Shown here: piece by piece, positions 3,931 to 50,702 of the stretch
Layout of the letters: every line of letters begins with the position of its first letter
How positions within the stretch are numbered: position 1 is the first letter of the stretch
Assembly (NCBI GenBank): GCA_009937405.1
Contig: JAACCU010000113.1
Location: 1-53,478, forward strand
Direction of reading: 5' to 3'
Origin: Actinomycetota bacterium
GTDB lineage: Bacteria > Actinomycetota > Acidimicrobiia > Acidimicrobiales > Aldehydirespiratoraceae
DNA length: 53,478 nt
Notes under the pieces: model-generated
What the model was told of the DNA's origin: nothing
Database searches by the model: none
Seen by the model: the letters and a program-made list of their open reading frames with translations, nothing else
Translations under genes and position numbers: made by a program

Positions 3931-3947
3931 TCTGAATGTTCGTCAGA
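3931..3947. promoter_or_regulatory. palindromic operator-like site 1 of 13 (TCTGAC-N5-GTCAGA family)
   Basis: TCTGAATGTTCGTCAGA. It lies 26 nt from the minus-strand start at 3904 and is the first of a tandem pair. Confidence 0.75.
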
Positions 3948-3951
3948 TAAA

Positions 3952-3968
3952 TCTGAATGAACGTCAGA
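3952..3968. promoter_or_regulatory. palindromic operator-like site 2 of 13
   Basis: TCTGAATGAACGTCAGA. Its centre is 21 bp from site 1, and it lies 75 nt upstream of the thiolase ATG at 4044. Confidence 0.75.
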
Positions 3969-4043
3969 TTAGAGTCTGTTGCACTACGAATACAAGAGCA
4001 ACGGCTCGGTTCTTTAAAAAGCCGACGATGGAAAGGATCGACC

Positions 4044-5216
4044 ATGGGAATGCCGGTGATCATCGAAGCAGGGAGAACCGCCTTGCAACGGCGAAATGGA
4101 GGGTTCATGGACACCCATGCGGCCACCTTGCTGGGGGCCGCGCAACGGGGGGTCCTGGTGCGAGCGGGTGTCGATGCGTCGAGCGTTGGGCAACTCGTGG
4201 GTGGTTGTGTGACCCAGGCCGGCGAGCAGGCGAGCAATGTCACGCGCACCGCGTGGTTGGGCGAGAAATTCCCCTACGAGGTGGCGGCCACCACGATCGA
4301 CTGCCAGTGCGGGTCATCACAGCAGGCGAATCATATGGTGGCAAACCTGATCTTGGCCGGCGCGATCGATGTCGGTATGGCGACTGGGGTCGAGCACATG
4401 AGCAAGGTGTGGCTCGGTGCAAACGTTCCCCGGGTCGAGGATCAATTCATCAACGGGCGATCGAAGCCGGACAATTTCCCGTGGGACATGCCTGATCAAT
4501 TCGTAGGTGCTGAACGGATCGCCGCTGAGCATGGCATTACTCGTGAGCGGGTCGACTGGCTGGGGATGATCTCACAACACAAAGCAGCCACAGCGGTTGC
4601 CGAGGGGCGCTTCGAGCGAGAGATCATTCCCGTCGAGGTGGCTGGGAGTGATGGTGAGGCAGTCATCGTCGACACCGATGGTGGTTTGCGCGAAACCACG
4701 ATGGAGTCGTTGTCCACACTGAAGACCGTTCTCCCCGACGGGATTCATCACGCCGGCAATAGTTCCCAGATCACCGACGGCGCCGCGGCCGTCTTATGGA
4801 TGGACGAGGACAAAGCACGCAGCGAGGGACACCGTCCACGGGCGCGGATCGTCGCCCAAACGCTTGTCGGATCAGACCCCTATTTCCATCTGGACGGTCC
4901 CATCCCGGCGACCAAAAAGGTGCTCGACATGGCTCAAATGTCTCTGGACGATATGGATGTGGTGGAGATCAACGAGGCCTTTGCCAGCGTGGTCATGAGT
5001 TGGGCGAAGGTCTACGGCATCAGCGACGACGACCTGGTCGACAAGGTCAACCCCAACGGCGGGGCCATCGCCCTGGGCCATCCGGTCGGTGCGACTGGCG
5101 CGAGATTGATCACGACCGCGTTGCACGAACTCGAGCGGCGCGACGCCGAGTTCGCACTCATCACCATGTGCTGTGGGGGAGCGGTCGCAACCGGCACCGT
5201 GCTTCAGCGCTTGTAG
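4044..5216 (+). CDS. acetyl-CoA C-acyltransferase (thiolase)
   Basis: GAAAGGA lies 6 nt before ATG 4044. Nucleophile motif [27 protein letters not shown], and C-terminal [10 protein letters not shown]. Confidence 0.9.
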
Positions 5217-5217
5217 C

Positions 5218-48936: not shown

Positions 48937-50132
48937 TGCCTGAGGCCTTCCTCGCCGACGTCCGCGTCATCGACATCTCGATGCTTGGCCCCGGTGCCCT
49001 CGGCGGCCATCTGGTCGACTTCGGCGCGGAGGTCATCAAGGTCGAGTCGCCCTCTGGCGAGTACATCCGATCGATGACCTGGCCGATTATCCACGACGAC
49101 CACGGGTCGAATTCTTTGCTTCACTTGCACGTGAACCGTGGGAAGAAGTCTTTGGTCCTTGACCTGAAGTCCGATGAGGGTCGAGACGCACTGGGCGAAT
49201 TGATCCGGTCAGCGGATGTGGTGATCGAGGGTATGCGTCCGGGATTCCTTGACAAGATTGGCTTTGGACCTGCTCGTTTGAAGGAACTGAAGCCCGACAT
49301 TGTCGTCTGTTCGCTGTCGGGGTACGGGGCCACTGGCCCCTACCGAAACCTGCCATCACACGGAGTTGCCTACGATGCGTGGTCCGGGGTTGTGCAGCCG
49401 GTTGTCGACGACGATGGCTTCTGTCGGATTCCGCCCCAAGCCAACGTTGGCATCACTGCCGGCCCGGCCTTTGCCGCCATGGCAATTCTGGCTGCGCTAA
49501 TCCGGGCTCGGTCCACGGGTGAACCCGCCATCATGGAAATAGCGCAGTCTGATGCGTCTGCCTACTTCGATTGGTATCGGATCGAGACCGAGCGGGCCTA
49601 CCAGCGCTCGGCGGACGAGGTGACGGGCAACGCCAGCGATGACGGAGAGCGGCGCGCCGCTGGTCTCGCGGGGATGTGGGAAGGCGTTCGCTACCAGTTT
49701 TATGCCTCGGCCGATGGCCATGTGCTTTTCATGGCCAGCGAGAAGATGTTTTGGGAAAATTTCTGTCGAGGCATAGCCCGTATGGACCTCTTTGAACGAT
49801 GGCCAGGATCCACCTATGCCGACCATGCCCGGGGCAACACCGAGCTCCACGGTCAGCTTCGCGAGATCTTCGCTACCAAGACCACGGCTGCGTGGCTCGC
49901 GTTCGCCGACGAACACAACACCACGATCGCGCCGGTGAATACCTCGGCATCAGTGATTGACGATCCCCAGTTCAACGACCGGTTCGACTGGGTCGGTGCC
50001 GGTTCCTTGGGTGCGGATCAGCTGCTCGTCCCGCTCAAGCTTGCCGGAGAGTCACTTCCGATTCCTGGTCGAGCCCCTGACCTCGGCCAGCACACCGACG
50101 AGATTCTGGACGCTCTGACCCAAGATCGCTAG
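48936..50132 (+). CDS. family III (CaiB/BaiF-type) CoA-transferase
   Basis: TGATG overlap with the ALDH stop. Motifs VRVIDISMLGPGALGGHLVDFGAEVIKVE and SLSGYGATGPY. Confidence 0.85.
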   Translation: MPEAFLADVRVIDISMLGPGALGGHLVDFGAEVIKVESPSGEYIRSMTWPIIHDDHGSNSLLHLHVNRGKKSLVLDLKSDEGRDALGELIRSADVVIEGMRPGFLDKIGFGPARLKELKPDIVVCSLSGYGATGPYRNLPSHGVAYDAWSGVVQPVVDDDGFCRIPPQANVGITAGPAFAAMAILAALIRARSTGEPAIMEIAQSDASAYFDWYRIETERAYQRSADEVTGNASDDGERRAAGLAGMWEGVRYQFYASADGHVLFMASEKMFWENFCRGIARMDLFERWPGSTYADHARGNTELHGQLREIFATKTTAAWLAFADEHNTTIAPVNTSASVIDDPQFNDRFDWVGAGSLGADQLLVPLKLAGESLPIPGRAPDLGQHTDEILDALTQDR

Positions 50133-50147
50133 GCGGCCGGTGGCGCC

Positions 50148-50633
50148 TCAGTCCGCCAAATCGCCCATACCCACGGCGCTGACGGGCCAGTTGGCGAGCG
50201 GAAGATCGAGTGGGTTTGTGCCGATCGGGGCCCCGTACCAGAGCCGGTGCTTTCGCCGCGTGAACAGCCAGTCGTCGTGTCGGCGCTCGTAGGTGTCGTG
50301 GTATTCGATCAGCTGCACGATGAGTTGACCATCGAGTTCAAGCTCGGCGCGGGTACCGACGACGCCAGTCGCATGGTCGCCATCCTCGACATCGATGACG
50401 TGGTTGGTCACGTGCAGGACTGCCATGCCAAGTGGCGCCAGTTGGCGCTCGAAGTCGGCGCGCAACGCGTCTCGACCTGTGGAATGACGCCCCACCTGGA
50501 CATCGTCGACGAACAGCTGGGCGAGCGCGGCGATGTCGTGACGCCCCATGGCGACCGCGTAGCGGCTCGCGAGTTGACGAATCTGTTCGCACGCATCGAG
50601 CCATGCGGTTTGATCAGTGTGACGCAAGGACAT
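50148..50633 (-). CDS. SnoaL-like/NTF2-fold protein
   Basis: ATG 50633 gives MSLRHTDQTAWLDACEQIRQLASRYAVAMGRHDIAALAQLFVDD, typical of SnoaL_4/NTF2-like domains. About 161 aa. Confidence 0.65.
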   Translation of the reverse strand: MSLRHTDQTAWLDACEQIRQLASRYAVAMGRHDIAALAQLFVDDVQVGRHSTGRDALRADFERQLAPLGMAVLHVTNHVIDVEDGDHATGVVGTRAELELDGQLIVQLIEYHDTYERRHDDWLFTRRKHRLWYGAPIGTNPLDLPLANWPVSAVGMGDLAD

Positions 50634-50685
50634 GGTGGCCGACTGTAGTGGCGAGACCCGGTCCGAATCCGACTGTTCGAGAAAA

Positions 50686-50702
50686 TCTGACGTAGATTCA
50701 GA
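50686..50702. promoter_or_regulatory. palindromic operator-like site 13 of 13
   Basis: TCTGACGTAGATTCAGA, which differs from site 10 at a single base. It lies 29 nt upstream of ATG 50732 and 52 nt from the minus start at 50633. Confidence 0.75.

Follow-up and report, generated by a model that had tools for sequence, protein, structure and literature searches.

TetR-family repressors that act through short palindromes control large catabolic gene clusters in mycobacteria, and two of them, KstR2 (Rv3557c) and KstR (Rv3574), are the described systems closest to the one reported here. In Mycobacterium tuberculosis KstR2 binds the 14-bp operator AnCAAGnnCTTGnT in the gap between Rv3549c and Rv3550 (echA20), its sites lie 22–39 bp from the start and both divergent units are repressed (Kendall et al. 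2010). The same study assigned 83 genes of M. smegmatis to KstR, 55 of them in one region. We analysed 53,478 nt of DNA from an Actinomycetota bacterium of the Aldehydirespiratoraceae (GenBank assembly GCA_009937405.1, contig JAACCU010000113.1, positions 1 to 53,478 of the forward strand; this whole stretch is called the window below), in which a 17-bp dyad of the form TCTGAC-N5-GTCAGA recurs in the promoter gaps of a catabolic gene island. The island encodes a TetR-family regulator of its own at 37748–38407. With a probability of roughly 0.78 we take the dyad, in its extended form wwTCTGACG-N3-CGTCAGAww, to be the operator of this regulator, through which it would repress the island.

A preliminary description of this DNA, made from the letters alone, had listed 13 dyad sites and claimed that TCTGA and TCAGA are invariant at a fixed 7-nt spacing, that the flanks are A/T and that far less than one match is expected by chance. 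All 13 sites were recovered in the window with the same coordinates and sequences, the two pentamers are unchanged in 13/13 sites and both bases outside the core are A/T in all 26 half-site flanks. Against these 13 matches to TCTGA-N7-TCAGA, dinucleotide-preserving shuffles contained 0.06 on average and never more than 1. The extended consensus was obtained from symmetrised counts: G is favoured at position 7 and C at position 11 of the 13 sites, which lengthens the half-site to TCTGACG and leaves a 3-nt spacer. From core to core plus flanks the dyad measures 17–21 bp, and the centres of its half-sites are separated by 11 bp, close to one turn of the helix. Scanning the window with a position weight matrix (PWM), as the preliminary description had proposed, gave a bimodal distribution with the 13 sites at 27–35 bits, far above all other positions; the next match in the window scored 11.8 bits and shuffled sequences reached at most 16.6 bits. 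Departures from C/G at positions 6 and 12 occur in the 13 sites without a compensating change in the partner, and we therefore consider the letters of the dyad to be conserved, not its pairing.

Genes were called by hand from the list of open reading frames (ORFs) and checked with Pfam and NCBIfam. To the right of a hairpin at 3345–3376 about 47 genes in 22 transcription units alternate between the strands. All 10 divergent gaps in this region hold a dyad, the first of them two copies 21 bp apart, and one dyad each is found in the only two co-directional gaps of at least 40 nt (34619–34666 and 40265–40311). Convergent gaps hold none, and no dyad lies inside or adjoining the three genes left of the hairpin. 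The gap table thus agrees with the preliminary description, which had placed a dyad in every divergent gap and at both co-directional operon heads and none near the three leftmost genes. All 13 copies are located in non-coding DNA, which amounts to 1275 nt or 2.4% of the window; the copy at 40260 shares bases with the TGA stop codon of the preceding gene, which encodes a luciferase-like monooxygenase (LLM). The distance of 3–35 nt to the start codon given previously was right as to closeness but slightly too narrow as to range: under re-chosen starts the dyad edge lies mostly 17–29 nt and in a few cases 35–75 nt from the start codon, a value that depends on the start chosen. Genes in the window are densely packed: 97.6% of the DNA from the first to the last gene is coding, 4-nt overlaps are frequent and no more than 43–139 nt separate divergent start codons. 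The hairpin is probably a bidirectional terminator that marks the left edge of the regulon. Hairpin and dyads are given below; loci of other genomes are designated by L and a number.

3345–3376: hairpin with a perfect 14-bp stem (10 G-C pairs) in the convergent gap between a TauD-like gene and the gene for a 165-aa protein
3931–3947: dyad 1a, TCTGAATGTTCGTCAGA, first of a tandem pair; divergent gap between the gene for the 165-aa protein (−) and a thiolase gene (+)
3952–3968: dyad 1b, TCTGAATGAACGTCAGA, second of the tandem pair, with a −10-like TAGAGT 2 nt downstream
6417–6433: dyad 2; 43-nt divergent gap between an acyl-CoA dehydrogenase (ACAD) gene (−) and a unit of short-chain dehydrogenase/reductase (SDR), ACAD and SDR genes (+); on the left, TACTGT 6 nt before the ATG at 6399
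10098–10114: dyad 3; divergent gap between an ipdF-like SDR gene (−) and the unit echA20-like, ipdA, ipdB, ipdC-like, MaoC (+)
15379–15395: dyad 4; divergent gap between a CoA-transferase III gene (−) and an HMG-CoA-synthase-like/thiolase-like unit (+)
19656–19672: dyad 5; 45-nt divergent gap between a unit of an unassigned gene and an LLM gene (−) and an isochorismatase gene (+)
23025–23041: dyad 6; divergent gap between a unit of Baeyer-Villiger monooxygenase (BVMO)-like and LLM genes (−) and a ChsH-like/Ltp2-like unit (+); on both sides TANNNT 7 nt before the start
27714–27730: dyad 7; divergent gap between enoyl-CoA hydratase and thiolase genes (−) and a unit encoding an amidohydrolase-related dinuclear oxygenase (ARO) hydroxylase, a ligase, an alcohol dehydrogenase and two further ligases (+); orthologous site at 373 in L006
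34629–34645: dyad 8; co-directional head of the ACAD-ACAD-SDR-TetR unit, proposed autoregulatory site
39331–39347: dyad 9; divergent gap between an SDR gene (−) and an F420-type LLM gene (+); kept in L005, L006 and L010
40260–40276: dyad 10, TCTGATACCGTGTCAGA; co-directional head of the unit encoding an ARO hydroxylase, a cyclase, a ligase and an SDR
47438–47454: dyad 11; divergent gap between Amidohydro_3 and enoyl-CoA hydratase genes (−) and aldehyde dehydrogenase and CoA-transferase genes (+); orthologous site at 20632 in L010
50686–50702: dyad 12; divergent gap between a SnoaL gene (−) and an ACAD, ACAD and old yellow enzyme unit (+) that continues past the window end

The 21-bp register of the tandem dyads 3931/3952 is kept in locus L093 of the same species, in which the spacers differ. 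A distance of two helical turns suggests cooperative binding of two dimers to one face of the DNA.

The TetR-family protein of 37748–38407 is the only regulator that Pfam detected in the island, and its own operon is headed by dyad 8.

34667–37745 (+): ACAD of 399 aa, short ACAD partner of 325 aa and SDR of 301 aa, co-transcribed with the TetR gene
37748–38407 (+): TetR-family regulator of 219 aa, GTG start at 37748, last gene of the operon 34667–38407

The DNA-binding domain PF00440 (TetR_N) is matched at residues 30–70 with 25.7 bits against a cut-off of 24, and with 32 bits in the Actinomadura orthologue; the C-terminal part belongs to PF19352 (TetR_C_38). An AlphaFold model shows nine helices in the canonical TetR fold at a pLDDT of 91. 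We aligned 19 family members: within the recognition helix S58-PATFYQYF66, residues A60 and F62-Y-Q-Y-F66 are invariant, which fits one shared operator across the family, and an arginine-rich N-terminal arm, DGRxIGxRA, is conserved as well. Because homologues conserve residues 15–23, that is the arm, the long reading from GTG 37748 is supported. At loci with TetR relatives the ACAD, the short ACAD and the SDR are the most conserved companions of the regulator, with median identities of 77%, 61% and 77%. A library clustered at 50% identity contains, at E up to 1e-30, 207 representatives of the TetR_C_38 subfamily. Among the strongest matches to the TetR profile are many proteins of 435–486 aa (P0121–P0134) in which the whole TetR unit occurs twice in tandem, with the recognition helices ATFYVYF and STFYLYF; they form a fused branch related to the family.

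The main argument for this protein as the cognate regulator is that the dyad and the TetR family co-occur across phyla of very different G+C content. A scan with one genome per species returned at least 590 relatives of the window TetR, of which the best 80 loci (1.21 Mb) were analysed. They come from metagenome-assembled genomes (MAGs) of Acidimicrobiia, Myxococcota, Delta- and Gammaproteobacteria, Spirochaetales and Burkholderiales and include the isolate Actinomadura xylanilytica. In these loci we found 94 dyads at 14 bits or more, distributed over 50 of the 80 loci, compared with 0.8 in shuffled sequence. When gene positions were set by homology, none of the 94 fell inside a gene homologous to a window gene. 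Their commonest neighbours are ARO hydroxylase genes (19), the TetR gene itself (10) and the first gene of the TetR operon (9). Upstream of the TetR start the dyads form two peaks, one at 0–200 nt (11 sites) and one at 2.5–3.5 kb (18 sites), the latter corresponding to the head of the ACAD-ACAD-SDR-TetR operon, and we therefore propose autoregulation in two gene arrangements. The dyad in front of this operon is kept in L005–L011, L014, L022, L030, L048 and others. Where the TetR protein is 58–69% identical, the dyad persists upstream of the TetR operon, in the SDR/ARO gap and upstream of the Amidohydro_3 gene while the flanks diverge. The copy at 40260 recurs, spacer included (TCTGATACCGTGTCAGA), in at least nine distant loci (L020, L022, L030, L033, L035, L036, L048, L052 and L066). 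In the cultured strain A. xylanilytica KACC 20219 (L084) a module at 9986–18647 carries a dyad at 9986 upstream of the TetR gene and further dyads in front of genes for an acyl-CoA synthetase of the NDP-forming type (10718 and 10756), an ARO (12957) and a class III CoA-transferase (18631).

These observations strengthen two proposals of the preliminary description, namely that the TetR protein of 37748–38407 is the candidate regulator and that one dimeric protein would control about 22 units: sites are present in an all-or-none fashion, are sequence-specific and are conserved in orthologous gaps of differing G+C. Several points weigh against this interpretation. No dyad at 14 bits or more was detected in 30 of the 80 TetR loci, many of which are short contigs, and some of the 30 (e.g. 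L076, L079 and L089) have weaker or differently spaced sites upstream of the TetR gene. A crude stop-to-stop test places 56 of 158 foreign-locus sites (35%) in ORF interiors; the test is too noisy for this use, as it misplaces one of the 13 window dyads and a larger error is expected at higher G+C. Sites of the island's own genome were scanned within the 53-kb window, and a second regulator of the same specificity or many sites outside it could exist. Start codons, −10 boxes and leaderless status were read manually from the sequence, and binding of the TetR protein to the dyad, repression and the transcription starts are predicted from sequence comparison. At about 42 nt upstream of its TetR start L076 contains the palindrome CTGACG-CGAG-CGTCAG, and L089 contains TGACAC-GC-GTGTCA at about 64 nt. 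These differently spaced palindromes hint at operator drift within the TetR family.

We also assessed the promoter of the ipd genes, which in mycobacteria is a KstR2 target. A metagenome scan with the IpdA protein yielded 80 loci of 70–98% identity and 0.51–0.73 G+C, 59 of which include enough upstream DNA. In 39 of these 59 (G+C 0.51–0.72) the dyad is found 806–919 nt upstream of ipdA, in the gap between the SDR and the echA20-like gene. In the footprint anchored on this dyad the ten core positions TCTGA and TCAGA reach about 2.0 bits each, except for their outermost T and A with 1.6, while the flanks fall to about 0.2 bits, so that the phylogenetic footprinting suggested by the preliminary description shows a retained dyad in diverged surroundings. 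The seven most distant ipdA loci (70–73% identity; L161, L164, L166, L168, L169, L171 and L172) have no dyad and instead carry AACCAAGCGCTTGCTA 37–64 nt upstream of ipdA. This box matches the KstR2 operator, and dyad and KstR2 box are mutually exclusive at the ipd promoter. The distribution argues that non-orthologous TetR regulators control the ipd genes in different actinobacterial lineages, and we interpret it as a putative non-orthologous regulator replacement in which the two systems replace each other.

The geometry of the promoters is consistent with occlusion by a bound protein. The hexamer TANNNT is enriched 1–10 nt outside the dyad edge, and on 11 of the 22 promoter sides it is found 6–9 nt before a start codon that lacks a Shine-Dalgarno (SD) sequence, an arrangement that suggests leaderless mRNAs, with the dyad over the −35/spacer region of their promoters. 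The gene to the right of dyad 4, whose true start is ATG 15414 at 18 nt from the dyad, has TAGGCT 7 nt upstream of the ATG. Seven of the remaining sides have leaders of the SD type, and on these the dyad either covers a −10-like hexamer or precedes the −10 by a short distance. The spacer of the dyad at 40260 itself contains a −10-like TACCGT, so operator and −10 box appear to be fused at this site. A scan of the window with the sigma-70 consensus did not find promoters, as expected for an actinobacterium of high G+C.

On this basis a classical mechanism can be proposed. The 11 bp between half-site centres are a suitable distance for one TetR dimer. Each TCTGAC half-site would be bound by one helix-turn-helix of the dimer, whose arginine-rich arm may contact the A/T flanks. 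Lying between back-to-back promoters or at an operon head, the operator would overlap the −35/spacer region, or at 40260 the −10-like hexamer, and a single bound dimer would shut both divergent units as has been described for KstR2 sites at similar distances. By way of the dyad at 34629 the regulator would repress its own operon. A pathway intermediate, most plausibly an acyl-CoA thioester because the regulon includes four acyl-CoA ligases and KstR, KstR2 and FadR sense CoA esters, could release the protein and thereby switch on about 47 genes in 22 units for the degradation of a polycyclic lipid.

Other explanations of the dyad have to be weighed against this model. Another dimeric regulator encoded outside the window might bind it, with the TetR protein of 37748–38407 controlling something narrower. 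Only 53 kb of the genome are visible, the TetR loci without a strong dyad would fit such a division, and further regulator genes do occur, a PadR gene in L005 and L006 and a second TetR gene adjoining the dyad in L010. However, the PadR and the extra TetR are each confined to one locus, while across phyla only the window TetR family accompanies the dyad constantly, so that an unseen protein would have to travel with it. About 29 dyads immediately precede the TetR gene or the operon that contains it, and the recognition helix does not vary in the family; we regard an outside regulator as unlikely. A different question is whether the TetR protein binds the dyad as an activator or dual regulator, for instance from a class-II-like position overlapping the −35. 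Where a unit looks leaderless, the centre of the dyad is about 26–38 nt upstream of the start, near the positions used by some activators, and a few activators of the TetR family are known. On the other side, the distance between dyad and start varies, and the overlap with the −10-like hexamer at 40260 is a position typical of occlusion. Moreover, dyads 39331 (left side) and 47438 (right side) are only 20–21 nt from an SD-preceded start and probably overlap the transcript start, EthR and FadR, the nearest relatives of solved structure, act as repressors, and KstR2 sites at comparable distances repress both divergent units, all of which makes activation quite improbable.

The dyad could also be read without a dedicated regulator. 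Its halves might represent the −35 hexamers of two divergent promoters that overlap, or an alternative sigma factor might recognise it, given that CTGACG agrees with TTGACA at 4 of 6 positions and that a −10 at 6–10 nt from the dyad edge is 15–19 nt from the far half-site. Yet both halves of the palindrome persist at 34629 and 40260, co-directional heads that need only one promoter, and several units with a −10 at 14–18 nt would be left with an impossible spacer of 23–27 nt. The TC at positions 1–2 and the A/T flanks, both outside a −35 hexamer, are invariant, and the dyad tracks the TetR family across phyla with different sigma factors; a promoter element is accordingly a very remote explanation. 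Least credible of all is a structural or repeat element without a regulator of its own, such as an RNA hairpin in the 5' leader, a terminator or a REP/MITE-like repeat. A stem of 6–7 bp with a loop of 3–5 nt is indeed possible, but the changes at positions 6 and 12 are never compensated and the letters themselves are invariant, not merely able to pair. No T-run follows the dyad, convergent gaps are free of it, no flanking repeat sequence is conserved and in leaderless-looking units the dyad lies upstream of the transcript. Rfam and tRNA scans of the window returned no matches. Repression by the TetR protein through the dyad thus remains the preferred interpretation.

How does this putative regulator compare with the known ones? 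Like KstR2, it is a TetR-family protein whose proposed short palindrome occupies the gaps between divergent units of a catabolic cluster; a single site would serve two units, and one lies at the regulator's own operon. The target gap is shared too: the SDR/echA20-ipdA-ipdB-ipdC gap (Rv3549c/Rv3550) has the same genes in the same order in the window, with the dyad in the same gap. The operators differ, a 14-bp sequence in KstR2 as opposed to TCTGACG-N3-CGTCAGA here. No exact match to AnCAAGnnCTTGnT was found in the window; three matches with one mismatch, compared with 0.8 by chance, are all intragenic and none lies in a promoter gap. The window TetR does not appear to be an orthologue of KstR2, as judged by the absence of matches to KstR2-named PDB entries: no entry named KstR or KstR2 was found by sequence (E up to 0.01), by profile (E up to 0.001) or among the 50 best fold matches. 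Furthermore, the regulon predicted for the window has about three times as many members as the 15 genes of KstR2, and ARO hydroxylases, F420-type LLMs, four ligases and a BVMO-like enzyme are among the additions.

With KstR the window system has in common that one TetR repressor would act on a palindrome repeated over a very large and mostly contiguous catabolic region. The KstR operator is TnnAACnnGTTnnA. It has one match in the window, inside the gene for a zinc-dependent alcohol dehydrogenase (Zn-ADH), and none in promoter gaps, and 23 of 100 shuffles give at least one match. KstR differs from the window protein in its operator and shows no sequence or fold match by name, and the window did not reveal the KshA, KstD, Hsa and Mce4 genes that characterise the KstR regulon. 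The preliminary description had argued that the dyad corresponds to neither the KstR nor the KstR2 operator, and both motifs are indeed absent from all promoter gaps of the window. It had also called the regulon unusually large for a contiguous one; the size holds, but it is not exceptional because KstR sets a precedent.

The closest solved structure is EthR (Rv3855) of M. tuberculosis, with TM scores of 0.74–0.85, 21% identity and a full-length profile match of 5e-11. EthR represses a neighbouring Baeyer-Villiger monooxygenase gene and binds a long operator of 55 bp cooperatively as several dimers. The window site, in contrast, is a single compact dyad present in 13 copies for many units, and the relation is remote and not one of orthologues. 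A second group of fold neighbours is formed by FadR/YsiA of Bacillus (PDB 3WHB and 3WHC) at 13–16% identity. These are repressors of beta-oxidation released by acyl-CoA and hence a model for the proposed inducer, although they differ in operator and regulon. Mce3R came into consideration through the double-length relatives of 435–486 aa. Its operator is asymmetric and not palindromic, and no chain of that name appeared in the PDB profile search; it was rejected as the known counterpart.

We found no paper on the dyad operator or on this TetR subfamily, in a search whose reach excluded most subscription journals, and with the same limit the pair of regulator and operator may be undescribed, as had been supposed. 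The literature search also returned no paper on KstR or steroid degradation in Acidimicrobiia and nothing usable on regulators of the abietane dit cluster. Half-site sequences matched only primers and unrelated text in full-text literature, and the main text of the N. simplex transcriptome paper does not describe its new motifs.

According to Pfam and NCBIfam the island encodes ACADs, some of them as long/short pairs, SDRs, enoyl-CoA hydratases, thiolases, thiolase-like/OB-fold pairs, a ChsH-like/Ltp2-like pair and CoA-transferases of classes I and III. Of the four acyl-CoA ligases one is CasI/FadD17-like but below the family cut-offs, and one of the three luciferase-like oxidoreductases exceeds the threshold for an F420-dependent family. 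The set is completed by an aldehyde dehydrogenase, the Zn-ADH, a BVMO-like flavoprotein and the one TetR protein. Two groups of genes bear on the substrate.

10136–14042 (+): operon of echA20-like, IpdA, IpdB, IpdC-like (NMO) and MaoC genes, ring-opening genes of the KstR2-regulon type
40312–41559 (+): DitZ-like ARO gene (Amidohydro_2), with a paralogue at 27753–29000

The block 9313–14042 has the mycobacterial order, an SDR gene (−) followed by echA20-like, ipdA, ipdB and ipdC-like genes (+). The IpdA homologue matches the solved IpdAB structures (PDB 6CO6 and 6CON) at 1e-96, and the echA20-like gene (NF005925) and the SDR gene (NF005893), with dyad 10098 in the gap between them, are above their cut-offs. 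The likeness to the gene content of the KstR2 regulon that had been pointed out previously is therefore borne out, but the label steroid is not: among 50 window genes Pfam identified no Rieske oxygenase (KshA), KstD-type flavoprotein or Hsa extradiol dioxygenase or hydrolase, although such genes could be encoded elsewhere in the genome. As these genes are not seen in the window, we describe the probable substrate more broadly as a steroid- or terpenoid-like polycyclic lipid, with steroid not established.

DitZ is a diiron diterpenoid hydroxylase of the ARO group. The two Amidohydro_2 proteins of the window match it (PDB 8UYR) at 9e-56 and PtmU3 at 1e-31. The ARO signature on the PF04909 fold consists of an N-terminal D-x-H and a C-terminal D-x-P-H-x-D/E (PMC13154177), and both window proteins contain it, as DDH together with DYPHSD (27753–29000) or DYPHTD (40312–41559). 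Sharing match and motifs with the DitZ-type AROs, they are probably C-H hydroxylases and not hydrolases. For the protein of 40312–41559, identity reaches 85% in distant loci and is 70% in Actinomadura.

Two regulon genes are interrupted. The ARO gene 27753–29000 contains an in-frame TAG at 28203–28205 (LALLCV*AYNDW) at a position where the paralogue 40312–41559 has E, while the counterpart in the near-identical strain locus L002 is intact with 415 aa; the TAG is explained either by an error in the assembly or by a nonsense mutation confined to this strain. The HMG-CoA-synthase-like/OB-fold gene read from ATG 15414 (MRGITAWATYLPF) has an in-frame TAA at 15492–15494 (AVAG*GGGRG), ahead of the listed ORF start at 15549. 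Two window proteins matched no Pfam family at E up to 1: the 264-aa product of 18858–19652 (−), which lies inside the regulon and is co-transcribed with a luciferase-like oxidoreductase, and the 384-aa product of 1256–2410 (+), for which there is only a weak hint of an M28 peptidase. The closest relatives of TetR and IpdA are all metagenomic, and the named ones are MAGs of Acidimicrobiia/Acidimicrobiales, Ilumatobacteraceae and Iamiaceae. An uncultured member of the Acidimicrobiia, and not a mycobacterium, is therefore the most likely source of the window.

In summary, the proposed mechanism is that of a classical TetR repressor and its operator, on a scale for which KstR sets the precedent. 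New, as far as can be predicted from the comparisons made here, would be the TetR subfamily, its operator, the link to ARO hydroxylases and the replacement of KstR2 at the ipd genes. A 17-bp site of this kind marks which of many look-alike ACAD, SDR, thiolase and ligase genes share one pathway, and it offers a clean, testable regulon for bacteria with almost no genetics, the uncultured Acidimicrobiia and their relatives; experiments are possible because the cultured A. xylanilytica KACC 20219 carries the same module. The TetR_C_38 subfamily becomes tied to the recently described diiron ARO hydroxylases, a link that points to the physiological substrate of these enzymes and supplies a biosensor candidate, and the ipd ring-opening genes outside Mycobacteriales would be under a different TetR subfamily and operator. 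More tentatively, and as a possibility that we hold to be somewhat less than even, the pair of TetR and dyad may be the signature of an undescribed multi-phylum pathway for polycyclic lipids (a sterol, a hopanoid or a diterpenoid-like acid). It would start with DitZ-type diiron hydroxylases, a BVMO and F420-type enzymes instead of KshAB/Hsa and end in ring opening of the IpdAB/EchA20 type, and its regulator would have taken over, in Acidimicrobiia including lineages of low G+C, the ipd genes that are under KstR2 in Mycobacteriales. If this is true, the dyad would read out the whole pathway genome by genome, and the TetR protein would be a ready-made biosensor for a pathway intermediate.

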